From the NCBI GenBank assembly GCA_018268995.1, contig JAFDVL010000009.1:987-64986 (forward strand): DNA of 64,000 nucleotides. The letters are read 5' to 3'. Below the pieces are notes generated by a model. It had not been told where the DNA came from, did no database searches, and saw only the letters and a list, made by a program, of their open reading frames with translations. Both the position numbers and the translations under genes were made by a program. The DNA is from Acidobacteriota bacterium. GTDB lineage: Bacteria > Acidobacteriota > Blastocatellia > RBC074. This document shows positions 37,894 to 56,661 of this stretch, in pieces; position 1 is the first letter of the stretch, and each line of letters begins with the position of its first letter.

Positions 37894-38916
37894 TTATTTT
37901 TCCAGCAGGCTCTTTGGCTTCCCCGGCAACTCACTGCGATAAATGCGAGCAACGCTGTAAGTGGTTCGTTGCTCCGGCGCATAATATAAACGAGCGAACA
38001 AATCGCCGATAAAGCCTAAACCGAGAAATTGCATCCCGCCCAGAAATGTTACGGCGCAGAAGAGCAACAGCGGCCCGTTTTTGATGAAGATGTCTTCGTG
38101 CCAGACAAGCTTTTTCGCCAGCAACCACGTCGCAATCATTCCCGACAAGACAATCATTGTCAGGCCGATTTTGCCGAAGAAATAAAGTGGTCTGGCCATA
38201 TAACGCAGCAAAAATCGAATTGTCAAAATATCGAACAGCACGCGAAACGTGCGCGAAATGCCGTAATGCGATTTACCTCCACCGCGCGGCATGTCTTCGA
38301 TGGGCACCTCGACAATCGAAGCGCCTTCAATATGCGCCAGTGCTGGAATGAAGCGGTGCATTTGTCCGTACAACGGAATGCGTTCCAGGATTTCGCGGCG
38401 GTAGGCTTTGAAGGTTGTGCCGAAATCGTGCAGAGGCACGCCGGAAGCCTGTGCCATTAGCCGATTGGCAATCAGCGAAGGAAACGTCCGCAAGAAGCCA
38501 TCGCGCCGATGCTGTCGCCAGCCACTGACAACATCGTAGCCGCCTTCTTCAATCTTTTCGATAAAGCGCGGAATATCTTCCGGCTTGTGCTGCTGGTCGC
38601 CGTCCATCGCGATGATGATTTCACCTTGTGCTCGATCAAAACCAGCGGCAAGACCGGCTGTTTGACCAAAGTTTCGACGTAGCCGCACGCCTAAAACGCG
38701 CGGATCAAGGGCGGCAATGTCCCGAATTAATGCCTGCGTGCGATCTGTGCTGCCGTCGTCTACCAGAATTAACTCATACTCATCTGTCACCGATTCCATC
38801 ACTTTCGTGAGGCGTTCGTACATCGGAGTTATGTTCAGTTCTTCGTTGTGAAACGGGACGACAATAGAATAACGCACGTGTGATTTTTGTTCGGATTGAG
38901 AGTTAATACTATTCAT
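37894..38916 (-). CDS. Membrane-anchored GT2 polyprenyl-phosphate glycosyltransferase (ArnC/GtrB/DPM1-like)
   Basis: GT2 motifs (YSIVVPFHNEELNI…LILVDDGSTDRT…IIAMDGDQQH). Two C-terminal TM helices (…IGLTMIVLSGMIATWLL… and …LLLFCAVTFLGGMQFLGLGFIG…) are characteristic of GtrB/ArnC. The start is probably MNSINSQ at about 38916, since the 5' extension to 39051 has no coding features. Confidence 0.8.
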   Translation of the reverse strand: MNSINSQSEQKSHVRYSIVVPFHNEELNITPMYERLTKVMESVTDEYELILVDDGSTDRTQALIRDIAALDPRVLGVRLRRNFGQTAGLAAGFDRAQGEIIIAMDGDQQHKPEDIPRFIEKIEEGGYDVVSGWRQHRRDGFLRTFPSLIANRLMAQASGVPLHDFGTTFKAYRREILERIPLYGQMHRFIPALAHIEGASIVEVPIEDMPRGGGKSHYGISRTFRVLFDILTIRFLLRYMARPLYFFGKIGLTMIVLSGMIATWLLAKKLVWHEDIFIKNGPLLLFCAVTFLGGMQFLGLGFIGDLFARLYYAPEQRTTYSVARIYRSELPGKPKSLLEK

Positions 38917-39060
38917 TGGCGAACAAAAGCTTAGAGGGCAAGCGAAAACTTTGCAAATGATTGCATGTCCGAAATGACGTGGGAAAATAGCTTGAGAAGA
39001 AAAAAGGACAGCAATTAAATTTGCTGTCCTTTCGTAGCGTGTGCATTTCACTGCATGGTT

Positions 39061-40383
39061 TTACCGCATCGTCACTGTGCTGCCAGCGCCGAGCGAATCA
39101 AGATTCAACTTCAGGTTCCATTTTTCGTTGGATTTCATCATCTTGTCCCAACTCACTTCGTGGCCTTCGTAAGCAGCCATCCGACCCAGAATCGTTGTCA
39201 GCGTTGTTTCGGCTCCATGTTCGCACTGGTTGTCGAACTTGCCCGTTTTGATGCTTTCGACCAGGGCTTTCATCTTCGTACCAACGGCTGCGTGCAAATC
39301 AACCTTGCCGCAATCAATTTTGTCGGCTGTTTTTTGGCCTTCTGCGACTTGATTGTAGCTGATGGTGGCCGGGCCGCTTTGCAACGAATCGGACGCGCCT
39401 TTGGTGCCAAAGAAGCGTTCGCCGGATTGGCGATAGCCTTTGTTCTTGAACTGGTTCGAGTTGAAGCTGATATGAACATCACCCGGATAGGTGTAGGTCA
39501 GGATGAAGTGGTCGCTGCACAGATAATCTGCCGGAACGCCATCCACCTGTTTGCGCAACGCACGACCATTGGTGCCTGTAGCTTTGATCGGATGCGATTT
39601 CAGCGCCCAGTTGACGATGTCCAGAATGTGAATGTTTTGCTCAACCAGAATGTCGCCGGACAAGGCACGGTCAAAGACCCAGTTGCGAATGCGCGCTTCC
39701 AGATCTATCATGCCGGGCTTGTTCTGGCGTCCCAGATCATTGGTGTAATAGAACGTCTGGCCCAGCACGATGTCGCCAATTTCGCCCGCGTGAATACGCT
39801 CAATCATGCCGCGATAGCCCACATCGTACCGCTTTTGCAATCCGACGTGCATGCTGACTTTGCCGTTGTATTTCTTGCCGATATTCATCACCTTCAGACA
39901 ACCCGTGACATCGGTCGCAACGGGTTTTTCAAGATACACGTGCTTGCCCGCGCTGACTGCCGCTTCCAGATGATCAGGATGGAAATACGGTGGGCTGGTG
40001 ACGAGCACCAAATCTACATCTTTGGATTGCACCAATTTTTCATAAGACTTGTGGCCTTTGAAAAGGTTCGTTTCGGCAATTTTGCCGTGGCCTTTTTCTT
40101 CGGCCTTTTTGTCGAAATTGGCGCGTGCTGCCAGCACCTTGTCTTCAAAGATGTCCATCAGTGCCGTGACACGTACGTCGGTGTTGGCGACAAATTCGCC
40201 GCCGTCGTAATTGCCACGTCCGCCGCAGCCAATAATGCCAAGCCCCAGCGATGAATTGGCTTTGTATCCGAAAGCGGTGGCTGCCGGAACGATCAGCAGT
40301 CCCGCGCCTGCTGCCGTAGTGGTTCGCAGAAAGTTACGACGCGAGAGTGATTTCCCGAAAATTGATTTTGATTGCACTTTCAT
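39061..40383 (-). CDS. Tat-exported Gfo/Idh/MocA-family oxidoreductase (periplasmic sugar/inositol dehydrogenase-like)
   Basis: Tat signal SRRNFLRTTTAAGAGLLIVPAATAFG. Rossmann LGLGIIGCGGRG and the EKP motif. The start is assigned to MKVQSK with an AAGGAG RBS. Confidence 0.75.
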   Translation of the reverse strand: MKVQSKSIFGKSLSRRNFLRTTTAAGAGLLIVPAATAFGYKANSSLGLGIIGCGGRGNYDGGEFVANTDVRVTALMDIFEDKVLAARANFDKKAEEKGHGKIAETNLFKGHKSYEKLVQSKDVDLVLVTSPPYFHPDHLEAAVSAGKHVYLEKPVATDVTGCLKVMNIGKKYNGKVSMHVGLQKRYDVGYRGMIERIHAGEIGDIVLGQTFYYTNDLGRQNKPGMIDLEARIRNWVFDRALSGDILVEQNIHILDIVNWALKSHPIKATGTNGRALRKQVDGVPADYLCSDHFILTYTYPGDVHISFNSNQFKNKGYRQSGERFFGTKGASDSLQSGPATISYNQVAEGQKTADKIDCGKVDLHAAVGTKMKALVESIKTGKFDNQCEHGAETTLTTILGRMAAYEGHEVSWDKMMKSNEKWNLKLNLDSLGAGSTVTMR

Positions 40384-40486
40384 GGTGATGATCTCCTTTG
40401 CGCTCATTATAACCAAATGAATGCTTTATGCCAGCTGTTTTAGGTGAATCTGCCAAAGAGAGTGACCGTTAACAATTCGACTTGGA

Positions 40487-42481
40487 TTATCGGGCAAAAA
40501 ATTGCCGCTTGAATTCCTCGTGCCGTTGTCGTGCTATCTCCAGCAGCTTTGTGTACTCGGCCTCACCGCGCAAATTGCTGAGCAGCGGATCATTGACGAA
40601 GTACGGATAGCAAAAAAATCCGCCTTCAATGCTACGCCGAAGCAGCCGCAACGCGGCAGATTTATCGCCTAGTTCAGCAAAGGCTTGCGCGACCTTGTAC
40701 AGTGCTTCGGCATCAGTCACTTTTTGCCTTTCAACTTGTTGTTCGATAGCGCGCAATTGTTCCAACCCCTGTGTGGTTTGTCGGGCGACGTGCAATCGTA
40801 AGGCGTGACCGATTTGGATGTATAACGAGGTCGGATTGCTTTGGTAGGCATCGTCAAAATCAGACATGGCGCGTTCCCAGTTCTTTAAGTAGTAATGACC
40901 CAGACCACGATAAAACATAATAAAGGCTGAAGGGGTTTTGGTCGGCAAACTGGAAAGGAACTTTTCGTATTGCCCATCATAAAAATAACTATTGAAAGCT
41001 GAGCTGTTGAGCTTTACTTCAGGGTCAAGTTGCCGCGCGCGTTCGCCTTCTGCAATAGATTCTTTCAGCATTCCGCCGAACCGATAAGCGTAGCCGAGTT
41101 CCCAGTGCGCTTCAGGATGGTTTGGGTTTGTTGCCAGCGCTTCACGTAACAGTGGCACCGCCTGTTCGACACGTCCCGTATCGGTGAACAGGTTTGCCAT
41201 GAAAATGCGTGCTTCGATCAAGTCAGGATTTAGCGACAATGCTTTTTCATAATCGCTCTGTGCCTTGCGGTAATATTCTTCACCACCGAATTCAAACGCA
41301 GCCTTAGCCGTGTGTGCGCGTCCGAGGTGTGCCCAGGCCAGCGGATAATTGGGCGAAAGACGCACCGATTGTTCCAACATCTGCGTGGCCAGATTGAATT
41401 CATTGCTCGCGTATAAATCCACCCCACGCAGATAAAATTCATATGCCTGTGCATTATCCGGCACGTCGCGTTGCAATCGTGCAGATTCAGCAGAGGTTAA
41501 GGACAAATGCAAGCCGCGAATAATTTCCTGTGCGACACGATCCTGTAGGATCAACTGACCTGTATCTTTCAAATCAATTTCATCTTTCCAAAGCAATCTA
41601 TCCGCCACCACGTCAATCAACTGGGCGGTGACACGCAAATGGCTTTCTTCTTTCAGATAGCTGCCAACCAACAAGGTATCAACGTTCAAGTCCGTCGCCG
41701 CCTTGCGCACATCGAATTCCTGATTTCGGTACTGGCTGACATAGGACGACGGTTTCACGGTCAACGCACTGACATAACCAAGTTTCGTGATGATGGCATC
41801 CGCGAGCGGAAAGCCTAAATAATCGGTTGCTGCATCTGGTTTGAGATTACGAAATGGCAAGACTGCTAAGCGTCGTGCCTGCGGGGAGTTTTTTTGCTGC
41901 CACTTAAATGCTAGAAAGACTCCGACCAGCAGCACCACAAACAGCATCGCCAGGCCGATAAAAAGAATTCTTGCTCTTTGTGGCTTTGTGGTCTGGCCCT
42001 CAGCTATTGGTGTGACGGGATGACTGGGGTCTGGAGTTGATGCCGTATCTTCAGTTGATGGCGGTAACTCTTCGCTTTTGTCCGGGATGGATTTTTCTGC
42101 GGGGATTTTCTGTACGGGAGCAACAAAGCGATAGCCGCGCCGAGGCAAGGTTTCGATGTATTTGATGCCATCGCTGTTTTCGCCTAAGGCTTTGCGCAAG
42201 GTGGAAACGTTTTGTGCCAGATTGGCTTCTTCCACATAAGTATTCGGCCAGACACGATCCATCAAATCGTCTTTGCTCACAAGCTGTCCACTATTTTCCA
42301 GCAACACGAGCAACGTATCGAAGGCTTTGGGGGTCAACCAGACAATCTCGTCTGTCCGCCAAAGTAATCTTTCCTGCGGATCAAGCCGGAAGGGGCCGAA
42401 TTGATATAAAAAATAAGCTGGATCGTTCATCTGCTCTTTCAGAATCGTGTCAGGCACACGCCCATATTTACTGCTTGCCAT
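40487..42481 (-). CDS. CadC-like membrane one-component regulator: N-terminal OmpR-type winged helix, single TM, periplasmic TolB-N-like module + TPR domain
   Basis: wHTH (…FGPFRLDPQERLLWRTDEIVWLTPKAFDTLLVLLENSGQLVSKDDLMDRVWPNTYVEEANLAQNVSTLRKAL). TM (ILFIGLAMLFVVLLVGVFLAF). Conserved periplasmic module (LAVLPFRNLKPDAATDYLGFPLADAIITKLGYVS…) and TPRs. Confidence 0.8.
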   Translation of the reverse strand: MASSKYGRVPDTILKEQMNDPAYFLYQFGPFRLDPQERLLWRTDEIVWLTPKAFDTLLVLLENSGQLVSKDDLMDRVWPNTYVEEANLAQNVSTLRKALGENSDGIKYIETLPRRGYRFVAPVQKIPAEKSIPDKSEELPPSTEDTASTPDPSHPVTPIAEGQTTKPQRARILFIGLAMLFVVLLVGVFLAFKWQQKNSPQARRLAVLPFRNLKPDAATDYLGFPLADAIITKLGYVSALTVKPSSYVSQYRNQEFDVRKAATDLNVDTLLVGSYLKEESHLRVTAQLIDVVADRLLWKDEIDLKDTGQLILQDRVAQEIIRGLHLSLTSAESARLQRDVPDNAQAYEFYLRGVDLYASNEFNLATQMLEQSVRLSPNYPLAWAHLGRAHTAKAAFEFGGEEYYRKAQSDYEKALSLNPDLIEARIFMANLFTDTGRVEQAVPLLREALATNPNHPEAHWELGYAYRFGGMLKESIAEGERARQLDPEVKLNSSAFNSYFYDGQYEKFLSSLPTKTPSAFIMFYRGLGHYYLKNWERAMSDFDDAYQSNPTSLYIQIGHALRLHVARQTTQGLEQLRAIEQQVERQKVTDAEALYKVAQAFAELGDKSAALRLLRRSIEGGFFCYPYFVNDPLLSNLRGEAEYTKLLEIARQRHEEFKRQFFAR

Positions 42482-42625: not shown

Positions 42626-44569
42626 TTAGAAAAAAGTTCTTTTGAATTCTTCATGGCGTTTGCGCGCCAATTCCAACAATACCGCGAATTCTTTGTCCTT
42701 GCGGAGTGAATCAAGCAAGGGATCGTTCGTAAAATACGGATAACAAAAAAATCCACCTTCCACGCTGTGTCGCAGCACGCGAAGCGCCGCTGCCGTGTCT
42801 CCCAGTACGGCATACGCCTGCGCAATTTTGTAAATCGCTTCGGCATCATTTACCCCGCGCGCCTCAATCACCTTTTCTGTTTCTTTCAATTGTGCAATCC
42901 CGACTTGATTTTGCCCGGCAATGACAAATGACAACGCTTTCCCGATATTGGTATGCAGCAATTCGCGACTTGCCTCAAAGGCTTGATTGAATTCCGTCGT
43001 AGCGCGCGAAAAATCCTTTTGATAATAAAATCCCAACCCACGATAAAACCCAATGTACGGCGAACTGGTACGGGGCAGTTTGTTCAGAAAGGCGTCGTAT
43101 TGCCCCAGATAAAGATAGGTCGCAGGAACGGAGTTGTTGGCTTTGACTTCCGTGTCGAGTTGTCGCGCTCGCTCGACTTCTTCCAGCGATTCTTTCAGCA
43201 TTCCACCGAAGCGATACGCATAGCTCAATTCCCAATGGGCCTGCGCCAATGTGGGATTGGTTTTGAGCACTTCACGCAGGAGCGGCACCGCCTGTTCGAC
43301 GCGATTCGTATCGGTCAGAAAAGTTGCCATCGAAATACGGGCTTCGTTTTGCTCCGGGTTCAGCGCCAGCGCTTTTTGATACGCTTGCTGGGCCTTGGCA
43401 TAATCTTCACGACCTCCGAGATTAACCGAAGCCTTTGCTGTATACGCTGAGCCGAGATGTGCCCAAGCCAGTGCATAGTTGCCGTCAACTGCCAGGGATT
43501 TCTCGATCATTTCAATTGCTTGTGGCAGTTTGTTGATAGCGTACAGATCAATCCCACGAAGATAATATTCATAGGCTAATGGGTTTTGCGGAACATCGCG
43601 TTTCAATCGTTCTGCCTCTGCTGAAGTCAGATTGAGTTGCAAGCCACGGATGACTTGCTCAGCAACACGATCCTGCACCGTCATCAGATTTTCGTATTTC
43701 AGTGCCAGCGCATCTTTCCACAGAATTTCATTGGTCACGACATCCACTAATTGAGCCGTGATGCGCAATTCATCGCCTTCTTTGATGTATGTGCCTGTCA
43801 GCAACGTATTGATATTCAAATCAACGGCGACGCGTTTGGGATCAATATTCTGATCGCGGTATTTGTCTACATAGGATGATGGACGCACGGTCAGCGAACT
43901 GACATAACCAAGTTTCGTGATGATCGAATCCGCCAGTGAAAATCCAAGAAAGTCAGTGGTTGCTTCCTGCTTGAGATTGCGAAACGGCATGATTGCCAGC
44001 GTGCGAGGTGCTGTGATTCCAGGATTCGTTTTGGCTGGTTGTCGAAAGAACGCAAAGTAGGCGAACGCCAGTGGGACAATGATCAGGGATAACGCAATCG
44101 CCAACTGATAGGGCAAGAGCTTTTTCGTTTCGGGTTGTGATGTGGGTGTTTGTGCTTCTGCGACAGCGTCATATTCCTGTGTTTGCATCTCGCTCAGGGC
44201 CGTTCCCTGAGCGTAAGAAGCAAATCCGTTTTCCTGAATTGCTGTAACGTTAACGGTAAAACGATACCCTCGCTTCGGAATCGTTTGGATCAATTGCTGT
44301 CCATCTGGCCCCAGCGCTTTTCGCAACGTTGAAATGTTTTGCGCCAGGGTTGTTTCTTCAACTTTGGTGTCTGGCCAAATGCGGTTGAGCAACTCTTCTT
44401 TGGTTAAGACGCGCCCGCTGTTTTCGACCAAAACCAGCAAGGTCTCAAATGCTTTTGGCGTCAGCGGAATCGGAACTCCGTCGCGCCACAGAATGCGCTC
44501 TTCACGCTCCAGGCGAAACCCCTCGAATTGGTATAAAACCGTATCCTGACTGGTCTTAGCCTCTTTCAT
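42626..44569 (-). CDS. CadC-like membrane one-component regulator, tandem paralog of 40487..42481
   Basis: Same architecture and clearly alignable blocks (…YQFEGFRLEREERILWRDGVPIPLTPKAFETLLVLVENSGRVLTKEELLNRIWPD… and …LAIMPFRNLKQEATTDFLGFSLADSIITKLGYVSSLTVRPSSYV…). Confidence 0.8.
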   Translation of the reverse strand: MKEAKTSQDTVLYQFEGFRLEREERILWRDGVPIPLTPKAFETLLVLVENSGRVLTKEELLNRIWPDTKVEETTLAQNISTLRKALGPDGQQLIQTIPKRGYRFTVNVTAIQENGFASYAQGTALSEMQTQEYDAVAEAQTPTSQPETKKLLPYQLAIALSLIIVPLAFAYFAFFRQPAKTNPGITAPRTLAIMPFRNLKQEATTDFLGFSLADSIITKLGYVSSLTVRPSSYVDKYRDQNIDPKRVAVDLNINTLLTGTYIKEGDELRITAQLVDVVTNEILWKDALALKYENLMTVQDRVAEQVIRGLQLNLTSAEAERLKRDVPQNPLAYEYYLRGIDLYAINKLPQAIEMIEKSLAVDGNYALAWAHLGSAYTAKASVNLGGREDYAKAQQAYQKALALNPEQNEARISMATFLTDTNRVEQAVPLLREVLKTNPTLAQAHWELSYAYRFGGMLKESLEEVERARQLDTEVKANNSVPATYLYLGQYDAFLNKLPRTSSPYIGFYRGLGFYYQKDFSRATTEFNQAFEASRELLHTNIGKALSFVIAGQNQVGIAQLKETEKVIEARGVNDAEAIYKIAQAYAVLGDTAAALRVLRHSVEGGFFCYPYFTNDPLLDSLRKDKEFAVLLELARKRHEEFKRTFF

Positions 44570-44882
44570 AATTCTTTGAAAAGAATCTCAAAACAATTTG
44601 AAGTATTCCTTAAGACTCTTCTGCCTCCAAGAGTGCAAACTCTTACCCTGCACAAAAAGACCGAAGACTGAGTGGATAAAAATAGACCGCTTTTTGGGGG
44701 ATGGGGGAAGTTTATCCCTAAAACGGCGTTCATTTTACCTGCAAGGCATTCTTTGGACAACTGAAGCAGTCAGGGGAAGTTGACACCAGGATCAGAAAGC
44801 TGGGCGCAACGGTTCGTTACCGCTCACAGCACTGGGGTAGGAGCGACTTCCCGTCGTTCTAAAAATTCCAAAAGGGGGGAAA

Positions 44883-47162
44883 ATGAATACTCGTATCAAG
44901 ATTATCTGTTGTTTTGTTTTTCTCGCGGTCGGAGCAGCGATGCTGTGGCCGCGCGGCAATCGCTCGTTTGCGAAGGCCGACGATTTCGATGGACGGTTTA
45001 ATAAGAATCCGCCTACGGCCTCCGGCCCAATTGCTGTGACCTCGGACGACCGTTTTGTGTGGGTCGTCAACCCGGATAACAATTCGGTTTCGATCATTAA
45101 CGTCCACGATGATGCCAATGTCAAAGACGGCGAAATCCGTGTTGGACGCGAACCAAACAACCTTGCGATTTCGCCTGATGATCGGTGGGTTGCGGTCAGC
45201 AATACGGTCAGCGGTACGATCTCAATCATCAATGCCAGAACGCGCCGCGTGGTAGATAACATCCGCGTCGGCACAGAACCTTACGGCATTGCCTTCACGC
45301 CCAACGGGGACAAGCTATATGTTGCCAATGCGACTTCCAACGATATTTCGGTGATTGACACAAATCGCTGGCGTGTGGTCAGAACCATCCGCAATGTTGG
45401 ATTGCAACCACGCGGAATTGCCATTACCAACGATGGCGATGCGCGAGATGATGATGAAAAAGTCTACGTCACACAGTTCTTCGCCGTGCAACGTCCCGGC
45501 ACAGTGATCGGCGCGGATGATTACAAAGAAGGTCGCGTCACCGTGATTTCCACCCGCAATGATCGCGTCGTCAAAGAAGTTGCGTTGGCTCCAATGGCCG
45601 ACGTTGGCTTCAACGCAAACGGCTCCGCGCTCAAACGGATTCCAGCAACCGATCCGGCGACGTTTACCGTGCCGACGGGGGCATTTCCGAACTTCCTCAA
45701 CGCGGTTGTCATCAAAGGCGACAAAGCCTACTTGCCCAACAACGCAGCCTCACCTGATGGCCCGGTGCGATTCAACGTCAACGTGCAATCATTCCTCAAC
45801 GTCATTGACACGACAACAGACAAAGAAGGCGAAGTTGGCGGGCAAAAGCAGACGATCAACATGAATCGCGGCATTCAGTTTGAGGCTGCGACACCGAATC
45901 GTTTGTTTCTGGGTGTCCCGTGGCACATCGCTTTCAAGCGCAACAGCAACGAGGGGTATGTGGTTGCGCAAGCCGCGAACATCGTTGTCAAAGTCGTGTT
46001 GGACGCGAACGGAACGCCTACGATCAACGCTCCGACGCAAGCAGGTGGCTCTGGCAATGTCATTCGCATTCCGGTCGGACAAAATCCGCGCGGCATCGTC
46101 ATCAACAGCACTGACAATCGTGCCTATGTGATGAACGAAGTTTCGCGGGATGTGTATGTGCTGAACCTGGAAACCAACACGGTCAAGTCTGTGGTCAAAG
46201 CCGCTGACCTGCCGCCCCCTGGCACGCTTGAGGCCAGAGTTCACATTGGCAAAGCGATCTTTCACAGCAGCACGGGTGTGAGTTTGCCCGAACTGGGGGC
46301 GGAAGGCGTCATCGGACAACGGCTTTCCAGCGGTGGCTGGAGCGGTTGCATTTCGTGCCATGCCTTCGGGACGACAGACGCCGTCGTCTGGATTTTCGGG
46401 GCAGGCCCGCGTCGTTCGGTGCATTTGAACGGCTCGTTCAATCCGCATAATCCTCAAGACCAAAAGATTCTGAATTACTCAGCAATCTTTGACGAAGTGC
46501 AGGATTTTGAAAACAACATTCGCGGCGTTTCCGGCGGGCTGGGGCTGATCACGCTGGCAGATGGCGTCACGCAAGACCCAACGCTTAACGCCTTTCCGCT
46601 GGCGAATACAGGCCGCAGCCGCGCGCTGGATTCATTAGCAGAATACGTTGCCCGCATTCGCACGCCGATCTCGCCGTTTTCAAATGTCGCTCCATTTACG
46701 CCTTTGGGACGTGAACTGGCACTTGGCCGACAGGTGTTTGAGCAAATGGGCTGTGTGAATTGCCACTCCGGCCCGGGCTGGTCGTCAGCACGTCGCGATT
46801 ACACGCCGCCACCTGCTGCCAGTGAAATCGTTAATGGGCAGGTGATTCGTTTGCTACGCAAAGTCGGCACGTTCAGTGCGGCGAATAGCAATGAAATCCG
46901 GCAGAACGGAGCCGCCCCGCTCGGAGCGGATGGCTATGCGCCGCCTTCGCTGCTGGGAGTTCATGCAATGGGCGAGCTATTCCACAATGGCTCGGCGGAA
47001 ACTTTGGAAGATTTGCTCAAGCAAAAGCCGCATCGGCAAGCGGGCCTGACGAATCCTGCCAATGATGTGCTGGATAATCCGGTTTTCTTCCGCGCCTTAT
47101 TACGATTCGTCCAGTCCATTGATTCTTCGACGCCCCCGTTCCCGTTGAAGAAACTAAATTAA
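44883..47162 (+). CDS. Secreted fusion of a YVTN-family beta-propeller with a C-terminal di-haem cytochrome c peroxidase (CCP/MauG)-like domain
   Basis: Signal/TM MNTRIKIICCFVFLAVGAAML. Repeated YVTN-like blades (…VWVVNPDNNSVSIINV…, …VAVSNTVSGTISIINART…, …LYVANATSNDISVIDTN…). Two CxxCH haem motifs (CISCH, CVNCH) are separated by about 135 aa. The CCP-family distal motif follows (…PPSLLGVHAMGELFHNGSAETLEDLL, compare VPSLRNV…PYFHNGS..TLEE). Confidence 0.7.
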   Translation: MNTRIKIICCFVFLAVGAAMLWPRGNRSFAKADDFDGRFNKNPPTASGPIAVTSDDRFVWVVNPDNNSVSIINVHDDANVKDGEIRVGREPNNLAISPDDRWVAVSNTVSGTISIINARTRRVVDNIRVGTEPYGIAFTPNGDKLYVANATSNDISVIDTNRWRVVRTIRNVGLQPRGIAITNDGDARDDDEKVYVTQFFAVQRPGTVIGADDYKEGRVTVISTRNDRVVKEVALAPMADVGFNANGSALKRIPATDPATFTVPTGAFPNFLNAVVIKGDKAYLPNNAASPDGPVRFNVNVQSFLNVIDTTTDKEGEVGGQKQTINMNRGIQFEAATPNRLFLGVPWHIAFKRNSNEGYVVAQAANIVVKVVLDANGTPTINAPTQAGGSGNVIRIPVGQNPRGIVINSTDNRAYVMNEVSRDVYVLNLETNTVKSVVKAADLPPPGTLEARVHIGKAIFHSSTGVSLPELGAEGVIGQRLSSGGWSGCISCHAFGTTDAVVWIFGAGPRRSVHLNGSFNPHNPQDQKILNYSAIFDEVQDFENNIRGVSGGLGLITLADGVTQDPTLNAFPLANTGRSRALDSLAEYVARIRTPISPFSNVAPFTPLGRELALGRQVFEQMGCVNCHSGPGWSSARRDYTPPPAASEIVNGQVIRLLRKVGTFSAANSNEIRQNGAAPLGADGYAPPSLLGVHAMGELFHNGSAETLEDLLKQKPHRQAGLTNPANDVLDNPVFFRALLRFVQSIDSSTPPFPLKKLN

Positions 47163-47233
47163 TCCGGCCACCCAGACACGCAGGCAAGGTTTAGTTGTCG
47201 GGCCTTGCCTGCTTCCTCACCTGAGAAACCATT

Positions 47234-47359
47234 ATGGCTCCGTTTGATTACTTCCTCATTGGCGCAGGTTCCGCCGGTTGCGTCCTGGCCTGCGCGTCGT
47301 GGACGCTTCCATTTTCCCAACCCAGACAAATGGCTATCCATCGTGATTGCCGTCGCTGA
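47234..47359 (+). pseudogene. Relic of a GMC-family (choline-dehydrogenase-like) FAD oxidoreductase gene: only the N-terminal FAD-binding motif survives
   Basis: The 41-codon ORF MAPFDYFLIGAGSAGCVLACASW… matches the hallmark GMC N-terminus (FDY[IF][IL][VI]GAGSAGCVLA) and then diverges and terminates. It sits in an otherwise ORF-free 530-bp intergenic gap. Confidence 0.5.
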
Positions 47360-47694
47360 AAAGGCGGCTGCGATGATTGGTTAGAATTGGCTTAGTTGGC
47401 ATCGCCCTGAGAAAGAAGTGTCAAGGGTTCAAGCTTCAGCTTGTTTTGGGCCTGCAAAGCCAAACTAAAGTTTGTACTCTTAACCCCTGTCTTCACGCAG
47501 CCTTCAATTCGGCAATAATCCTGCTCGCTAAAAAATCTCTCTTTGTCTGGCAGTTTTCCCGCCCGCATTTCGTCTTACCCGATAGCAGCAAATATTCAGC
47601 ATTCCGTTTCAGCCATTGGCCTGAACGCTAAAAAGCAAACACACAGGGGCCGCATTAGGCTGTCGTGTATTTGCCTGCGAAAGGAGCGATGTGA

Positions 47695-48923: not shown

Positions 48924-51900
48924 TTACCGCGAAGTGATTTCCGCTTCCGTGGCGGCGCGCCAGAAGCATACGTTCCGATCCCAATCCCCGGCGTAGAGCA
49001 GTTTGCCATCGGGCGAAAAGCCAATGGAATTGTCAGCAATCCAGGAATGATTTTCTTTGAAGACCAGCAACTCTTCGCCCGTCGTCACATCCCAGAGCCG
49101 GACGGTATGATCCTGACTGCCCGTGACCAACCGGCGGTTATCCAGTGAGAACGCCAGGGCGGTAACAACTGCCGCGTGGCCTTTGAAAACGAACAACTCG
49201 CGTCCGGTTTGCGTGTCCCACAACCGCGCCGTCCCCTCACGGCTGCCAGTGGCAAACAGACGTTCATCCGCCGATAACGCAAAGGTTTCAATGCCAGCGT
49301 TGCCACAACGATATTCGCGGCGCATCTGGCCCGTTGCCACGTCCCACACGCTGACGACACTGTTCGTGCTGGCGACGTAGAGGCTTGCGCTGTCCGCCGC
49401 GAAGCGCAAACCCACGATGCCGCCGAAGTACACCTTCATTGAGTTGCGTGCTTTGCCGGTGCGCGGCTCCCAGAGTTGCACAGTGTTGTGAATGCTCACG
49501 GCCAGCGTGCCATCCGGCGCAAAGCTGAGCGCCGTCGCGGGGGTTGGCAAGGGAAGGGTGAAGACCTCTTTGCCAGTGGCCGCTTCCCAGACTTTGACTT
49601 CCACGGCATTGCCCGTGGCGTACCATTGGCTGTCGGCGGAAACGGCGACGTGGAAATTCGTAGGGCTGTTTGGCGGCAAAGGCGTGCGGTGGCGCAACGT
49701 CGTGATTTCCTGTCGCGTCGCCATATCCCATACCGTTACGGATTGCTCTTTCTGCCCCGTCAACAACCGCTTGCCATCCGGGGTCAACACGATGTGCGCA
49801 AAGGCTCTCATCTTTCTCGGATCGTACAGCGAATCGTCGGCGCGCTCACGTGTCAAATCCCAGAGCTTGACGGTGTGATCTGCCGCGCCGGACGCGAGCC
49901 GTTGACCGTCGGGCGAAACAGCCAGCGCGAAAATCACATTGCCGTGCCCGCGCTGCACCGCTTTGTCTTTCCAGGTTGTGGTGTCTAAAAACGTGATTTC
50001 GGATTGCTTTGCTGCGTCCTCTCCACCGATGATCAGCGTGCGGCTGTCGGGTGTGAAGGCCAGCCGACGGCCTCTGTTTTCGAGCTGCATAAGCTGTTTG
50101 CCTGTTGCCGCTTCCCACGCGGTCGTGAGGCCATTCCCTGACACCACGACGATGCGCCCATCGGGAGAAAACAACGCGTTTTGCGGCTTCGCCCACACGC
50201 CTCCCAGTGCGAACAATTCGGTGCCGGAAGCCAGGTCCCAGAGATAGACGTTGCGTTTATGATCTGCGCTGCCGGTGATGAACCGCTGACCATCCGGCGC
50301 GATGGCAACGGTAAAGATGCGCGGCAGGTCTTTTTTGATGCGATAGATTTCGCGCCCGCTCGGCAACTCCAACAGGCTGATCGAACCATCACTAAACCCA
50401 ACGATCATCTGATTGCCATTGGGAGTGAAAGCAAAACAACTGAGGCCGCCTTGCAGGTCTGCGATCTTGTACAGTTCGGCTCCCGTGGTCAGCGAAACGA
50501 CACGAATGACTTTGTCGCCGAGACGGGCCATCGCCAACACCTTGCGATCCTGCGTCAGCGCCGTGATCCCCGCGCTCACAGCCGGGTATTCATATCGTCG
50601 CAGCACCTCGCCCGTGGCCGCGTCGCGCCAGACGACTTCCGTGCCAAGCGAAGCAGGGCCGACATCGCTTTGTTGCGCTGCTACGGTCAGAAGCTGCGTG
50701 CTGTCGAGGGAAAACGCGGTCAGGTGGATAAGTCCCGGAAGAGCAAACGAACGTTCTTCCTGATGGCTGAGCCTCCACAGGTAATACCACTCAAAGCCGC
50801 GATAATCCGGCGCGTTCGGTTGCGGCAAATAGGGCGTGAGCAGTTCGCGCATCCGTTCGATGTTCGCGTTGTTCCACGCCTGATGTGCCAAGCCCATCCG
50901 CGAAGTATAGAGCAATTGCCGATTCGAGAGTTCCTGTGTTTCGGCACGCTGGCGTTGCGTTTGCGCGACGTTACGTTCTGCTTCTGCGGTGAGTCGTTGC
51001 GTCTCAGCCACAGCGCGTTGTTGATTGGCTTCAGCCCGCGCGGCTTCGGCTTGCCGTCGGCGTTGCTCAGCAGTAGTCAATGCGTTTTCAGCGCGCGTTC
51101 GTTGCGCCTCGACTTCGGCCAACGCTTGTTCGGCCAAGCGGCGTTGCTCATCGGCAACGGCTAAAGCTTGTTCGGCACGAATTCTTTGCGCTTCGGCTTT
51201 GGCCTGTTCGGCGCGTGCGATTTGGGCTTGTCGTGACGTAGCTCCGATGCCGCCGACCAACGACAATAAAATCAAGGCAGCAGCGGCGACGGGAACTTTG
51301 TAGCGGCGTACATATTTCACTGCGCGATAGGCCAATGTGCCTTTACGCGCGAGTGTAGGCAAGCCAGCTAAGTAGCGTTGAATGTCAGTGGAGAATTGCT
51401 CGACTGAAGCGTATCGCTCATTTGGTTCTTTGCGTAGCGCCATCAGGACAATGCTGTCGAGATCACCACGAAGTTGCGACGGAGAGAAGGAGAGAGGGAG
51501 TGACGGAGTGACGGAGCGAGAGGACGGATCACCTTGTCCTGTTGTCGCTCTTTCCCACTGTCCCTCTTTCTCTCCTTCTTGCGCGCTTGGTCGCGTCGGT
51601 TCCTGTTCGCAGATTGCTTTTGCCAATTCGCCGAAGGTGTTGGTGGTGAGTTGATACGGGCTGCGTCCGGTGAGTAATTCATACAACACAACGCCCAACG
51701 AATACACATCGCTAGTGGTCGTGAGCGTTTCGTTGCGCACTTGTTCAGGACTGGCGTAGGCGGGCGTCATTGGAGTTTGGCCTGCCTGCGTTTGGAAAGA
51801 TTGCATCAGGTCGGGTTGCAGCAGTTTGGCGATGCCGAAATCCAATAGCTTTGGCGTGCCATCGGCAGTCACGAGAATGTTTGCAGGCTTCAGGTCGCGG

Positions 51901-52508
51901 TGAATGATAAGGTGTTGATGGGCGTATTGCACTGCCGAACAAACTTGACGGAAAAGCTGCAATCGTTCACGCAGGGAAAGCTGTTGTTGCTGGCAATAGA
52001 CATCAATCGGCACGCCTTCGATGTATTCCATCACAAGGTACGGTTGTCCGCTGTCGGTCGTACCGCCGTCGAGCAGGCGCGCAATGTTGGGATGATTCAG
52101 GCTGGCCAGAATCTGCCGCTCGTGGCGTAGTCGGTGTGCGATGTCAGGATGTTCCGTTTTCAGCAGTTTGATGGCGACCTGTTGCTGATATTGCTCGTCA
52201 GCGCGTTCTGCTAACCAGACTGTCCCCATTCCGCCTTGTGCCAGTTCGCGGAGCAATTGGTAAGCGCCGATGCGCTGTGTCGTGAGAGTCACAGAATCTT
52301 CTAGGGCTTGTTTCGCGGAAATTGGAGCTGCTTGTGATCCCAGAAAACCGTTGGCTTGACGGTGTGCAACGAGCAGGGAAGTTACTTCGCGTTGTAATGA
52401 TTCATCGTCCCGGCAGGCTTGCGCCAGAAATGCGGTTTGCTCCGTTTCAGGCAATTCCAGCATTTCATCAAAGATGCGTTCGATTTCGCGCCAACGATGA
52501 TTTTCCAT
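48924..52508 (-). CDS. Ser/Thr protein kinase (ECF-sigma-associated N-terminal domain + Hanks kinase) - TM - coiled-coil - WD40/beta-propeller repeats (1194 aa)
   Basis: The N-terminal conserved domain (MENHRWREIERIFDEMLELPETEQTAFLAQAC…) is shared with ORF 4947. Kinase motifs (GGMGTVWLA, VAIKLL, HRDLKPANIL, DFGIAKL, …ASPEQ). TM (AALILLSLVGGIGA). A Q/A/E/R-rich coiled coil is followed by many WD40-like repeats (…LWDL…, …VWD…). Confidence 0.85.
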   Translation of the reverse strand: MENHRWREIERIFDEMLELPETEQTAFLAQACRDDESLQREVTSLLVAHRQANGFLGSQAAPISAKQALEDSVTLTTQRIGAYQLLRELAQGGMGTVWLAERADEQYQQQVAIKLLKTEHPDIAHRLRHERQILASLNHPNIARLLDGGTTDSGQPYLVMEYIEGVPIDVYCQQQQLSLRERLQLFRQVCSAVQYAHQHLIIHRDLKPANILVTADGTPKLLDFGIAKLLQPDLMQSFQTQAGQTPMTPAYASPEQVRNETLTTTSDVYSLGVVLYELLTGRSPYQLTTNTFGELAKAICEQEPTRPSAQEGEKEGQWERATTGQGDPSSRSVTPSLPLSFSPSQLRGDLDSIVLMALRKEPNERYASVEQFSTDIQRYLAGLPTLARKGTLAYRAVKYVRRYKVPVAAAALILLSLVGGIGATSRQAQIARAEQAKAEAQRIRAEQALAVADEQRRLAEQALAEVEAQRTRAENALTTAEQRRRQAEAARAEANQQRAVAETQRLTAEAERNVAQTQRQRAETQELSNRQLLYTSRMGLAHQAWNNANIERMRELLTPYLPQPNAPDYRGFEWYYLWRLSHQEERSFALPGLIHLTAFSLDSTQLLTVAAQQSDVGPASLGTEVVWRDAATGEVLRRYEYPAVSAGITALTQDRKVLAMARLGDKVIRVVSLTTGAELYKIADLQGGLSCFAFTPNGNQMIVGFSDGSISLLELPSGREIYRIKKDLPRIFTVAIAPDGQRFITGSADHKRNVYLWDLASGTELFALGGVWAKPQNALFSPDGRIVVVSGNGLTTAWEAATGKQLMQLENRGRRLAFTPDSRTLIIGGEDAAKQSEITFLDTTTWKDKAVQRGHGNVIFALAVSPDGQRLASGAADHTVKLWDLTRERADDSLYDPRKMRAFAHIVLTPDGKRLLTGQKEQSVTVWDMATRQEITTLRHRTPLPPNSPTNFHVAVSADSQWYATGNAVEVKVWEAATGKEVFTLPLPTPATALSFAPDGTLAVSIHNTVQLWEPRTGKARNSMKVYFGGIVGLRFAADSASLYVASTNSVVSVWDVATGQMRREYRCGNAGIETFALSADERLFATGSREGTARLWDTQTGRELFVFKGHAAVVTALAFSLDNRRLVTGSQDHTVRLWDVTTGEELLVFKENHSWIADNSIGFSPDGKLLYAGDWDRNVCFWRAATEAEITSR

Positions 52509-52531
52509 AAAATTTCCCTTCCCTTTGTAGA

Positions 52532-52656
52532 CGCGAAGCGCCTGGGAGCGCAGGCATCCTTGCCTGCTTGTATTCGTACGCTGTAATTTTTCTCGTCGCG
52601 AATTTGCTCTCCAAGTCTGAAGTAGGCAGGGATGCCTGCGCTCCCAGGGCTACGCG
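52532..52656. repeat. Long imperfect hairpin (~30-bp stem, ~54-nt loop) between the ECF sigma gene and the downstream WD40 kinase gene
   Basis: Left arm CGCGAAGCGCCTGGGAGCGCAGGCATCCTTGCCTGC (52532-52567). Right arm GTAGGCAGGGATGCCTGCGCTCCCAGGGCTACGCG (52622-52656). The reverse complement matches with 3 mismatches and 1 indel. Confidence 0.6.
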
Positions 52657-52667
52657 CTCTCAAGCGG

Positions 52668-53234
52668 TCATTTCCTATTCAACTCTCGGTATAACCACGC
52701 TTGTGCCAATCGCCATTCGCGGGCAATTGTGCGCGGTGATACGCCCAGAACTTCGGCAGTTTCTTCGACGCTCAAGCCACCGAAAAAACGTAGCTCGACG
52801 ATGCGGCTGCGACGTTCATCGAATTGGGCTAAGGTCTTCAGTGCATCATCCAGTGCGATCAATTCCGGGCTTTGCTGCCACGCCATTTCTTCTGCTGCAC
52901 CAAGCGTGACGCGGATGGCTTTGCCGCCGTGTTTTTGCGCCTGTTGCTTGCGGGCTTCGTCTACTAGAATGCGCCGCATCAAAATAGCCGCGACGCCAAA
53001 GAAATGTGCGCGGCTTTGCCAACTGACGTTGCGCCAATCAATCAGGTGCAACCAGGCTTCATTGACAAGTGCAGTGGCTTGCAGCAAATGATCCGGCGTT
53101 TGCTGGTGCATGTAGTGTGCGGCCAGGCGATGGAGTTCAGCTTGCACCTGCGGCAGCAATTTTTCCAGTGCCGCTTGATCCCCCGCGTTCCAGGCTTGCA
53201 ACAACTGCGTTACGTTGGAGTTGGTGACAACCAT
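52668..53234 (-). CDS. ECF-type RNA polymerase sigma factor (paralog of 4377..4943)
   Basis: …ALVNEAWLHLIDWRNVSWQSRAHFFGVAAILMRRILVDEAR… / …FFGGLSVEETAEVLGVSPRTIAREW… These blocks are alignable with ORF 4377. Confidence 0.85.
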   Translation of the reverse strand: MVVTNSNVTQLLQAWNAGDQAALEKLLPQVQAELHRLAAHYMHQQTPDHLLQATALVNEAWLHLIDWRNVSWQSRAHFFGVAAILMRRILVDEARKQQAQKHGGKAIRVTLGAAEEMAWQQSPELIALDDALKTLAQFDERRSRIVELRFFGGLSVEETAEVLGVSPRTIAREWRLAQAWLYRELNRK

Positions 53235-53499
53235 CGTCCCTCCTGAAAATTATGTGGCAGTTTTCGTTTTTGTTTTTCGTCTTACTGATTAGGCAGACAC
53301 CATTGCCTTGGTGCAGCATCCGCGTTTGGCGCGGGCGGCACATCTGGGGAGTGGGCTGAACTCCGCTTCAGTCCAAACTGTGTTCTTGATAACGCAGGGC
53401 ACGGGAAAGCGGTCTGGCTAAGTCTTCTTTTCCGTGTTTCCCCTGAAAGTGAACAGGCGCATTGTACGGCTGCAAATTGGTCGGCGCAACCAGCCCGGC

Positions 53500-56400
53500 T
53501 TATTCCTTTGTGATTGCTTCGTCCAGATTGAGCAGCACGCGTGTGACTGCCGTCCAGGCTGCAAGTTGCGGATTGGTGATGCCTTGGGGCAATGGCAGCG
53601 GTTTGTCCGAAAACGCAAAACTTTCAGGATTTAAAGAACCACTGGCGAAGCGTTCGCGCTGTTGCTTCAGCAATCGCAGCAATTCATCACTTTCCTGCAC
53701 TGATGGCTTACGCGTCAGCACGCGGCGAAAGGCAAAGGTTACGCGCGCTGCATCGGTTGCGCCGCCTTCCTGCAAGGTTTTCAAGGCCAGGGCGCGTGCG
53801 GCTTCTAAAAAAATGGTTTCGTTCAAAGTCGTCAACGCTTGCAGCGGTGTGTTGGATTGGGCACGGCGTACGCAGGAAACATCGCCATTGGGCGTATCAA
53901 ATGCTTGCAGGACGGGGTAGGGAACGGAACGAAAACGAAATGTGTACAATGCCCGCCGATAACGATTCTCGCCCTTTTCCTCTTTCCAATTTTTTGTGCC
54001 GTAGCTGACGGGCGGTAAATATAAAAACTCTGGTGCAGGCGGATACACACTGGGGCCACCGACTTTGGCATTCAGCAATCCACTCGCAGCCAAAGCAATG
54101 TCGCGCACGATTTCACCTTCGACCCGAAAGCGCGGGCCACGCGCCAGCAAACGATTGAATGGGTCTTTTTCCAACAACTGCGGCGTGACTTTGGACGATT
54201 GGCGATAAGTGGCGGAAGTCACGATCAGGCGGTGCAAATGCTTCAAACTCCAACGCGGAGTGCGGAGCGTGGAATGCGGAGTGGCTTTTGATACTGCACT
54301 CGAAGCTTCCATAAATTCTACGGCGAGCCAATCCAGCAGTTCTGGATGCGAAGGAACCTCACCCTGTTTGCCGATGTCTTCGGCTGTGGCGTACAGCCCT
54401 GTGCCGAAATAGCTTTGCCAGATGCGATTCACCATTGCGCGCGCGGTCGTGGGCGATTGCCGATCTACGAGCCATTTGGCAAACGTGAGGCGATTCGCGG
54501 GTGCGCCAGCAGGCAACGGATTCAGAAACGCAGGCACTGCGGGCGTGATGGTTTTATCAGGACGCAGAAAATCGCCGCGTTTCAGCGTGAAGGTTTCGCG
54601 TGTTTCTGTTCGCTCGTTCATCACCAGTTGCGAAGTGCCTGCGGGATGTTGTTTCCACAGCTCGGCAATTTGTTGGTTGTATGTTGCGAACTCCGGCAGC
54701 GTCGTCCGCCAACAACTGAACACGGTTTCAAGTTGCGCTTTAGTGCGCTGATCGCGCGGAATCGCAAAAATTTCGCGCACGCCTGTGGTTAGCGGATCGG
54801 CGGTGACATTAGCCGCATCCGTCAAAGACAGGCGAAGCCGTCCGATGCCTTGTTGTTCATTGTCGTTGTTGTTCCATCCGCCGTGACGCTGGCTCAGGTA
54901 AAAGCTCAGGATCAGCCCATTTTCATTGGTGATTGGCTCGGCCAGATTGAAAACGGCTTTGCGCGGCTGATTGCGCAAGCCGGGGCCGACGTCAATGCTC
55001 CAGCCCGTGTCTTCTTTGCCATCAATCGCAAATTGAATCAGCCCTTCAATGCGATGCTTGCCGCTTTTGTCATTGAACTTGGGTTCCAGGTCGCGTTCAG
55101 GCGCGCTGGCGTCTGCCGTGGCGCTGGCGATTTTGAGTTTGGTGATTTTCTTCGGATCGTTGATTGGCGCGGCTTCGATTTCAAATTCTGTCAGCGCGCA
55201 AGTGCCTTTGTACGAACGACCGGGGCCGCCAAACGGCAAGTTCGGATCGGTCAGCAATTCCAAGCGAATCGCCGAGATTTTCGGCTCTTGCGTTTTCAAA
55301 ACCATCTTCACGCGATGCTTGGCTGGCGCGTAGCCCCCGACCAGAAACGAACCGTCTTTTTGCGGCAGATATTTTGCGCCGTCGGTGGAAATATCTATGA
55401 CCTCCGGCTGCACGATTTTCCAATTGGGCTGATCGTTTTTGACCTTGTCTTCCCACGCGTTCATTTGCGCCTGCCAGTCGGGTTTGATCTCTTGCAATTT
55501 GGCTTCGATTTCGCGCGTCTGGCTCAGAATGTGTGCGCGTTTCATTTGTTCTTCGGGCGTGTAGACGGCCATCGCGCCTTCATACGAATTGTTCAGGAAG
55601 GCGAACATCCGGTAATACTCTTCCTGTTTGAGCGGATCGTATTTGTGATTGTGGCATTGCGCGCAGTTCACCGTGAGGCCGAGGACACTTTTGCCAATCG
55701 CGTCCATGCGGTCAAACATCGCTTCCATGCGGAATTGCTCCGGGTCTACGCCGCCTTCTTCGTTGATCATCGAATTACGCAGAAAGCCTGTGGCGACGCG
55801 CTGTTCCTGCGTGGCATTTGGCAAGAGATCACCTGCGATTTGTTCGATGATGAATTGGTCGTAGGGCAAATCGCGATTCAGCGCATTGATGACCCAATCG
55901 CGGTAAAACCAAACCGAGCGCGGCTTGTCTTTTTCAAAGCCATCCGAATCGGCATAGCGCGCTGCATCCAGCCAATGACGGCCCCATTTTTCACCGTAAT
56001 GCGGGGACGCGAGCAACCGTTCGACCTGTTTTTCATAGGCTTTGGCCGAAGTGTCTTTCAGAAACGTATCTACCTCTTCCGGTGTCGGGGGCAAGCCAAT
56101 CAAGTCCAAACTCAAACGGCGCAGCAACGTGATTTTATCGGCTTCCGATGAGGGCGTGAGGTTTTCCTTTTCCAGCCGTGCAAGAATGAAGGCATCAATC
56201 GGATTGCGCGCCCAGGCTTTGGTTTTGACGGCGGGAACTGCCGGACGAACGGGCGCAACAAACGCCCAGTGCTTTTGCAGCTTTGCCTCTGCCGATGCGG
56301 TGTCCGGCCAGATTGCGCCTTCCTCAATCCAGCGTTTGATGAGTTCGATTTGCTCTGGTTTCAATGCCTCGCGTCCAAGCGGCATGCGCTTCTCGCCACC

Positions 56401-56655: not shown

Positions 56656-56661
56656 AGCTTT

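Follow-up and report, generated by a model that had tools for sequence, protein, structure and literature searches.

Hydrazine synthase (HZS), the enzyme of anammox Planctomycetota, offers the closest described parallel to the protein discussed here. Its beta and gamma subunits (chains 5c2v_B and 5c2v_C in Kuenenia; fused in Scalindua, NF052342) combine a seven-bladed propeller with a following di-haem domain of the cytochrome c peroxidase (CCP) fold. In the gamma subunit, haem II has bis-His ligation (PMC12607021). According to Hägglund et al. (2025), a fused HZS beta–gamma query has more than 100 matches in RefSeq, distributed over diverse phyla (PMC12758564). The non-anammox beta–gamma homologs all carry two C-terminal haem motifs, and the key residues of HZS are not conserved in them (PMC12758564). 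Here, we describe a gene at positions 44883–47162 of the forward strand of a 64,000-nucleotide stretch of DNA from an Acidobacteriota bacterium of the class Blastocatellia (contig JAFDVL010000009.1, assembly GCA_018268995.1), referred to below as “the window”. Its 759-amino acid (aa) product, hereafter “the enzyme”, consists of a signal peptide, a seven-bladed beta-propeller of the same general kind, and a C-terminal di-haem domain of ~310 aa of the CCP/MauG type; we are highly confident of this architecture and fold class. Our best guess from the combined analysis is that it is a stand-alone haem enzyme that reduces peroxide or another small oxidant.

Other described relatives resemble the C-terminal part. 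In canonical CCPs, the Met ligand of the electron-transfer haem lies ~14 residues after the His of the FHDG motif. The enzyme differs from bacterial CCPs (PF03150; e.g., Shewanella CcpA, 3o5c; Geobacter MacA, 4aal; Nitrosomonas CCP, 1iqc) in several ways, including the following: it falls below the Pfam threshold, it has an invariant His two residues after the position of the Met ligand, and it has a 400-aa propeller fused in front. On the first two grounds, we rejected its identification as a canonical CCP. MauG, MbnH, and BthA have no propeller fusion; conversely, the enzyme has no mau or mbn context, with no mauAB or mbnABC/P substrate operon in the window or in related loci, and a Tyr ligand could not be identified. 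A propeller is also lacking in RoxA, a 70-kDa single-domain-family protein, and the likeness of RoxA and RoxC to the enzyme is much weaker. Of the corresponding NCBIfam models (NF050033/NF051462; cut-offs 900–1000 bits), RoxC scores 14.8 bits on the enzyme against a cut-off of 900, and RoxA gives no match.

The open reading frame (ORF) was defined from the ORF list and from reading of the sequence, and has the following features:

44873–44885, plus strand: ribosome-binding site and start codon (AGGGGGGAAAATG, 13 nt), with all 13 nt invariant in an upstream alignment with five relatives
44883–44978, plus strand: Sec-type signal peptide, aa 1 to ~32, with a basic N-terminal end, the hydrophobic stretch IKIICCFVFLAVGAAML, and then SFA-KA
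45015–46202, plus strand: seven-bladed YVTN/lactonase-type beta-propeller, aa ~45–440, recognized by TIGR02276, Pfam, AlphaFold2 (AF2), and Foldseek
46215–47159, plus strand: di-haem c domain of the bacterial CCP/MauG superfamily, aa ~445–759
46347–46361, plus strand: haem-1 motif C489-I-S-C492-H493, of the presumed catalytic haem, conserved in 63 of 63 family members
46752–46766, plus strand: haem-2 motif C624-V-N-C627-H628, of the presumed electron-transfer haem, conserved in 62 of 63
46941–47012, plus strand: CCP/RoxA-type signature PPSLLGVHAMGELFHNGSAETLED, aa 687–710, aligning with TLRN…PYFHDGSVWTLEE (3o5c) and TLRD…TYFHDGGARTLMD (5c2v_C)
47031–47033, plus strand: codon of His717, conserved in 62 of 63, the candidate sixth ligand of haem 2 (putatively bis-His)
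47180–47212, plus strand: perfect 10-bp inverted repeat GCAGGCAAGG…CCTTGCCTGC, with a 13-nt loop and no T-run, 18 nt 3′ of the stop codon

An initial annotation of this DNA had described ~400 aa of YVTN-type blades fused to a di-haem CCP/MauG-like domain of ~270 aa with two CxxCH motifs. The fusion is borne out by the agreement of TIGR02276, the AF2 fold, the CxxCH motifs, and the CCP signature. The extent of the blades was also right, as was the number of haem motifs (aa 489–493 and 624–628); the length of the C-terminal domain was an underestimate.

The upstream alignment comprised the window and loci L001, L005, L006, L007, and L066, whose proteins are 77–90% identical to the enzyme. A GGGGGG Shine-Dalgarno sequence lies 3 nt 5′ of the ATG, and the invariance of the 13-nt block supports 44883 as the true start; an alternative, shorter call of 740 aa (P0002) is without the signal peptide. 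In the AF2 model, the N-terminal end forms a helix (residues 3–21) and a disordered linker (21–40), and cleavage of the signal peptide is presumed to occur at SFA-KA. Attachment of c-type haem requires export of the protein. The Sec-type signal peptide and the two c-haem motifs point to a secreted redox enzyme, as the initial annotation had suggested. The mature enzyme has four cysteines, all within the two CxxCH motifs, with two more in the signal peptide. The full-length AF2 model, with 64 homologs as input, has a mean predicted local distance difference test score (pLDDT) of 86.9 and a predicted template modelling score (pTM) of 0.89. Downstream, the inverted repeat is a possible transcript end. 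With its 13-nt loop and no T-run, it was not called by the consensus terminator scan; the consensus promoter and terminator scans gave results no better than with shuffled sequence.

The propeller is recognized by several independent models. TIGR02276, the NCBIfam YVTN repeat, scores 100.6 bits against a cut-off of 27.85, with four repeats, and the Pfam models Lactonase, YNCE, and Cytochrom_D1 are above threshold on the N-terminal part of the enzyme. The AF2 model has seven four-stranded blades across residues 50–439, with pLDDT mostly >90; its strand pattern places long conserved insertions in blades 4–6. When the propeller was compared with the PDB using Foldseek, the top match by E-value was the archaeal YVTN surface-layer protein 1l0q_A (1.2e-18), and the highest target-normalised TM score (0.79) was that of HZS-beta, 5c2v_B (E 1.4e-16); cd1 nitrite reductases, NirN/NirF, BtuG, and lactonases followed. 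In the alignment of homologs, SPDGPVRFNVNVQ is among the propeller motifs kept across phyla, and the invariant polar residues include D212, N270, Y283, S290, N298, Q302, N326, and R422. In the same alignment, no His, Cys, or Met able to hold a metal or haem d1 is conserved in the propeller.

No curated model recognizes the haem domain, meaning that databases label these proteins only as “lactonase/YVTN propeller”. The single Pfam match on the C-terminal domain is to the 39-residue RoxA-like_Cyt-c motif (aa 684–715, E 2.2e-4), and none of the 120 closest homologs has PF03150 among its precomputed Pfam matches. Assignment to the superfamily instead comes from profiles and structures. Profiles built from homologs and compared with PDB sequences match Shewanella CCP 3o5c (1.5e-9), Nitrosomonas CCP 1iqc (6.5e-8), HZS-gamma 5c2v_C (4.4e-6), RoxA (0.006), and MauG (~0.05–0.07); for Geobacter MacA, one alignment covers both haem sub-domains (profile positions 31–286 to chain positions 49–302). 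By structure, the best match of the haem domain is HZS-gamma (comparison value 12.8, 23% identity), followed by MbnH (12.0), CCP 3o5c and YhjA (both 11.7), MauG (11.5), BthA (10.7), and RoxA (7.1), with the best other cytochrome, TsdBA, at 5.0. At the level of the fold, the domain therefore has what defines the superfamily, i.e., two c-type sub-domains in the CCP arrangement, each with a CxxCH. Proteins of the CCP fold lead both the profile and the structure comparisons, and the C-terminal domain is not better matched to mono-haem class I cytochromes. The first CxxCH lies outside the propeller blades, ~50 residues past the last propeller strand and within the helical C-terminal domain. The distal CCP signature that had been reported from the initial inspection also stands: each residue of LFHNGSAETLED (aa 699–710) has its aligned partner in the 3o5c sequence PYFHDGSVWTLEE and in the HZS-gamma sequence TYFHDGGARTLMD, and the enzyme's PPSLLG…ELFHNGSAETLED aligns with the canonical motif P-x-L-R-N…P-Y-F-H-D-G-S…T-L-E-E near haem 2. 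Within this signature, P688, S689, L690, H701, and G703 are conserved across phyla.

We examined the haem sites in a cross-phylum alignment of 63 members with 39–86% identity to the query. All 63 have C489, C492, H493, D499, W503, E538, D541, N545, and H701, and all except one have C624, C627, H628, and H717. The polar set near the haem-1 motif and the two His near the haem-2 motif are thus under strong purifying selection. This invariance of the haem motifs and polar pocket across phyla led us to reject a structural surface-layer protein. In alignments, the haem-2 CxxCH corresponds to the second such motif of CCPs and HZS-gamma. The Met ligand of 3o5c aligns with a variable position (K715 in the enzyme, Val in the family consensus); because this Met is missing and His717 is invariant two residues later, His717 is the natural candidate for the second axial ligand of haem 2, which we infer to be bis-His (H628/H717). 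This would be a further likeness to HZS-gamma. The segment between the two CxxCH motifs (aa 494–623) has no position at which His, Met, Tyr, Lys, or Cys is conserved across the 63 members. The C-terminal domain therefore offers haem 1 no obvious sixth ligand, and its distal site is probably open or water-bound, as expected for a catalytic haem. The activation-loop distal His of CCPs aligns with the invariant W503. E538, D541, and N545 occupy positions i, i+3, and i+7 on one face of a predicted helix (538–550), a pattern that would fit a distal acid/base set if, as we propose, this face lies near haem 1. When the C-terminal domain is modelled alone, residues 487–514 (the haem-1 motif and the next loop) have pLDDT <50, as compared with 66–80 in the full-length model; this difference suggests, indirectly, that the haem-1 region packs against the propeller.

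The enzyme belongs to a family of >3000 proteins from Acidobacteriota, Eisenbacteria, Burkholderiales, and Chloroflexota, with ~45% identity across phyla. The 120 closest homologs are, a few truncated entries aside, 57–100% identical over their full length, and are named only as “beta-propeller fold lactonase”, “YVTN”, or “YncE” family proteins. When one genome per species was scanned, at least 525 relatives emerged, and the taxonomic spread given here is that of the best 80 of these. Among the best 80, the Acidobacteriota include Blastocatellia, Vicinamibacteria, Bryobacterales, and the isolate Edaphobacter aggregans DSM 19364 (L070). The other hosts are Eisenbacteria, Burkholderiales (Piscinibacter, Rhizobacter, Methylibium, and Rubrivivax), Chloroflexota, Rokubacteria, Myxococcota, Phycisphaerales, Verrucomicrobiota, and others. 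A profile of the C-terminal domain alone, searched against 1.84 billion cluster representatives (clustered at 50% identity), matched 4121 clusters at E≤1e-3, 1773 at 1e-10, and 295 at 1e-30. Representatives of 700–1000 aa mostly have the domain starting at residue 420–600, i.e., behind a propeller.

Some members of the family are larger. P0121 (2355 aa), P0123 (1545 aa), and P0125 (1682 aa) have two or three tandem propeller–di-haem units, and may be real polyproteins or gene-call fusions; P0145 (2823 aa) has a single unit embedded within it. Homologs of ~860–875 aa carry an additional tail: the type IX sorting domain TIGR04183 was found in all six of those tested (P0059, P0068, P0080, P0087, P0095, and P0120), scoring 24–36 bits against a cut-off of 23. 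The same extended architecture (PF13860) occurs in about a quarter of the 120 closest matches. Judging from their tails, these versions are probably displayed outside the cell by the type IX secretion system (T9SS), in Eisenbacteria and others. The initial annotation stated that the YVTN–CCP fusion recurs in surface-layer-like proteins. The tandem and T9SS-tailed versions bear this out in part; the connection to surface layers comes down to the likeness of the propeller to 1l0q.

How far does the likeness to HZS extend? Both are exported haem proteins with the same order of domains, and, among solved structures, HZS is closest to the haem domain and gives the highest target-normalised TM score with the propeller. 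By sequence, the match is weak. The NCBIfam models give E-values of 7.6e-20 (HZS-beta) and 3.8e-16 (beta–gamma fusion), and the enzyme scores 58.4, 71.3, and 12.3 bits against NF052342, NF052340, and NF052341, for which the cut-offs are 1250, 560, and 625; its score is thus ~5% of the family cut-off. In an hhalign comparison with a chimeric HZS-gamma sequence, the haem-2 half alone aligned confidently. The Cys that would form the extra thioether of haem gamma-I, a third haem-binding one, is missing from the enzyme, and none is conserved in the 63 relatives, 47 of which have four Cys in the C-terminal domain with none conserved beyond the two CxxCH. The CGRD of HZS-gamma (Cys165, with Asp168 three residues on; seen in fragment P0272) is without a counterpart in the enzyme; the equivalents of gamma His144, Cys165, and Asp168 were judged from the absence of the third Cys alone. 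No HZS_alpha homolog was found among the 20 larger window ORFs scanned with Pfam or beside the fetched homologs, and the hosts of the enzyme are aerobic soil bacteria rather than anammox Planctomycetota. We rejected hydrazine synthase identity because of the sub-cut-off scores, the missing third Cys, and the lack of an alpha-subunit gene nearby. The enzyme family does fit the description of the surveyed beta–gamma homologs (PMC12758564), i.e., a propeller with two C-terminal CxxCH in many phyla. However, clades I–IV of that survey are defined by co-location with an alpha homolog, and some have extra c554-type haem domains; the enzyme has neither. The supplement of the survey includes matches from Acidobacteriota to the alpha-subunit query (PMC12758564).

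To place the enzyme among its neighbors, 84 related loci were fetched. None has a conserved operon partner or a recurrent enzyme gene beside the homolog, which argues that the enzyme is self-sufficient. From these data and those above, we infer the ligation states, catalytic haem, and substrate as follows. With the propeller rigidly coupled to the CCP-fold domain (pTM of the AF2 model as above), haem 2 (C624/C627/H628), six-coordinate with His717, would be the electron port, through which electrons pass to or from a soluble partner (e.g., a periplasmic cytochrome c). Haem 1 (C489/C492/H493), with an open distal site at the propeller interface and adjoined by the invariant polar set D499, W503, E538, D541, and N545, would be the reaction centre, where a small oxidant is bound and reduced, with H2O2 or an organic peroxide as the most probable candidates. 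The insertions of blades 4–6 may form a lid or channel that selects access to haem 1, comparable with the role proposed for a loop of the HZS beta subunit. Reduction of H2O2 or another small oxidant is favoured by what most of the superfamily does and by the periplasmic location of the window protein. We have moderate confidence in the statement as a whole, namely that the enzyme is a Sec-exported, monocistronic, stand-alone redox enzyme with a reductive, peroxidase-type mechanism.

Several observations weigh against this peroxidase-type reading. PF03150 (CCP_MauG) scores only 15.2 bits on the enzyme (E 0.034) against a threshold of 25.6, and no Met is conserved at aa 705–724 among the 63 aligned members, such that the His/Met ligation of canonical CCPs is not found. 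The inter-haem Trp of CCPs and MauG is not evident by HMMER alignment, which is weak there: a variable residue stands opposite the Trp of MacA (FWDGR), and D526 and K528 match the D and R. In addition, the T9SS-tailed homologs would be extracellular and away from periplasmic cytochrome c donors, a situation more in keeping with an oxidase or oxygenase that consumes an oxidant than with a peroxidase that depends on a reductant. This last point lends strength to the main rival, in which the enzyme resembles MauG, MbnH, or RoxA, and a di-haem unit brought to a high-valent state by H2O2 or O2 acts on a peptide, protein, extracellular polymer, or aromatic compound held by the propeller, oxidising, cross-linking, or cleaving it with no external electron donor. 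That the inter-haem Trp, which in MauG serves hole hopping, is not evident in the alignment counts against this alternative, as does the failure to identify a conserved Tyr ligand at the MauG/BthA position. Moreover, the window protein itself has no secretion tail, and homologs have no conserved neighbor that could encode a substrate protein or peptide, unlike mauG with mauAB or mbnH with mbnP. We consider this rival unlikely, albeit one to be taken seriously.

A nitrogen-based chemistry would follow from the resemblance to HZS-gamma: haem 1 might reduce NO to hydroxylamine, or handle hydroxylamine or nitrite for detoxification, with the propeller serving as an HZS-beta-like structure and gate. 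The shared fold and domain order set out above are offset by bit scores that fall well short of the NCBIfam cut-offs (58 as compared with 1250, and 71 as compared with 560), by the lack of both the third haem-binding Cys and an alpha homolog in the scanned window ORFs or near relatives, by the lack of conservation of HZS key residues in the surveyed non-anammox beta–gamma homologs (PMC12758564), and by the absence of nitrogen-cycle genes near the enzyme gene. These make the proposal improbable. It is also conceivable that catalysis occurs in the propeller, at a central-channel site like that of lactonases or dehydrogenases, with the di-haem domain serving only to carry electrons to the respiratory chain, in the manner of quinohaemoproteins or cytochrome cd1. 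The Foldseek matches to cd1 nitrite reductase, NirN/NirF, and lactonases, the Pfam matches to Lactonase and Cytochrom_D1, and the many invariant polar residues of the propeller are all compatible with such a site. Nevertheless, the propeller has no conserved His, Cys, or Met for a metal or haem d1, and the haem-1 sub-domain keeps an invariant acid/amide set that a pure electron-transfer haem would not need. To our knowledge, no di-haem CCP-fold module acts as a simple electron wire. We regard a catalytic propeller as very improbable.

The sole recurrent neighbor of the enzyme gene is a ToxR-like regulator with a winged helix-turn-helix (wHTH), a transmembrane (TM) helix, and tetratricopeptide repeats (TPRs), present here in two copies. 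The neighboring features are as follows:

42626–44569, minus strand: ToxR/CadC-like regulator 1 (Pfam matches to Trans_reg_C, 1.3e-21, and to TPR), transcribed divergently, with a spacer of 313 bp between it and the enzyme gene
40487–42481, minus strand: regulator 2, a tandem paralog 54% identical to regulator 1
47235–47385, plus strand: remnant of a GMC oxidoreductase gene, made up of the N-terminal FAD motif MAPFDYFLIGAGSAGCVLA fused to the C-terminal end

Both regulators have an OmpR-type wHTH, one TM helix (in regulator 1 at aa ~151–175, with a hydropathy peak at aa 156), and a periplasmic region of ~470 residues that includes TPRs and a FlgO-like part. Full-length orthologs with 49–70% identity adjoin enzyme homologs in L066, L007, L006, L039, L011, and L002/3, and lie nearby in L047 and L022, in varied orientations and with enzyme identities of 45–78%. 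Of the ORFs adjacent to the enzyme homologs, 10 of 143 fall in the regulator cluster, as compared with 10 of 649 among ORFs that are not adjacent (odds ratio 4.8, p 0.001, with no correction for shared ancestry). A third wHTH-TPR gene in the window (12047–14425) is just 25% identical to the regulator. In L001 (~7690–7711) and L005 (~180–201), a stub of the regulator 5′ end (ATGAAAAATGGCGAAGTGTAA, reverse strand) is kept together with the conserved leader, indicating secondary loss of the regulator. The spacer (44570–44882) contains the conserved blocks GGGGGA (~44700), CATTyTA (~44731), and TTTGGACAAC (~44753), which are possible promoter or operator elements. In Acidobacteriota, the adjacent membrane regulators probably control expression of the enzyme, and would do so by sensing something periplasmic. 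An ABC-ATPase and other neighbor clusters were rejected as chance or local synteny, several being spurious antisense ORFs in high-GC loci.

The GMC remnant has an internal deletion and frameshifts, and its last ~30 codons match Pfam GMC_oxred_C (E 5e-5, profile positions 113–136 of 139). The initial annotation was thus correct that a decayed GMC gene lies beside the enzyme gene, as the FAD motif and the C-terminal match attest. Its suggestion that this gene marks a distinct functional context was not upheld, since no counterpart exists in the 84 related loci; for the same reason, we rejected the remnant as a functional partner. A gene for a TPR protein also lies downstream of the enzyme gene. 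Upstream of the enzyme gene, beyond the regulators, GT2 glycosyltransferase and GFO/IDH/MocA oxidoreductase genes (37894–40416, minus strand) are syntenic with the 86%-identical relative L001 (4976–7485); the difference between these loci lies in the two regulators. Farther downstream, all on the minus strand, are a Ser/Thr kinase–WD40 fusion of 1194 aa (48924–52508), a PF07638-type extracytoplasmic function sigma factor (52668–53234), a PSCyt1/PSCyt2/PSD1 “planctomycete cytochrome” protein (53500–56655), and an FAD oxidoreductase (56662–58347). We saw no link between this gene block (48924–58347) and the enzyme.

The fold classes and the general architecture described here are already known from HZS beta–gamma and from the 2025 survey, and the enzyme is not a new kind of system; beyond that paper on HZS evolution, we found no literature specific to the YVTN–CCP fusion. 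It represents an uncharacterised and poorly annotated family that is alpha-less, has no third Cys, has a His in place of the CCP Met, is linked to a ToxR-like sensor in Acidobacteriota, and includes T9SS-tailed and tandem variants. The family is abundant in dominant soil phyla, and is known in databases merely as “lactonase/YVTN propeller”. Should the enzyme prove to be an ordinary peroxidase, the main benefit, a modest one, would be improved annotation of thousands of genes. The existence of a cultivated carrier, E. aggregans DSM 19364, makes testable both the role of a stand-alone beta–gamma-type module and the evolution of HZS. A bolder reading, which we think doubtful, is that the enzyme is an alpha-less, free-living relative of HZS beta–gamma with a chemistry of its own, either as a periplasmic or extracellular MauG-like oxidase whose high-valent di-haem acts on propeller-clamped substrates or as an NO/hydroxylamine enzyme of aerobic soil bacteria, and in both cases switched on by a dedicated ToxR-like sensor of the periplasm. 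If this were true, the family would represent a new enzyme class in the CCP/MauG superfamily, and would provide a tractable model, in cultivable Acidobacteria, for the origin of the anammox enzyme.

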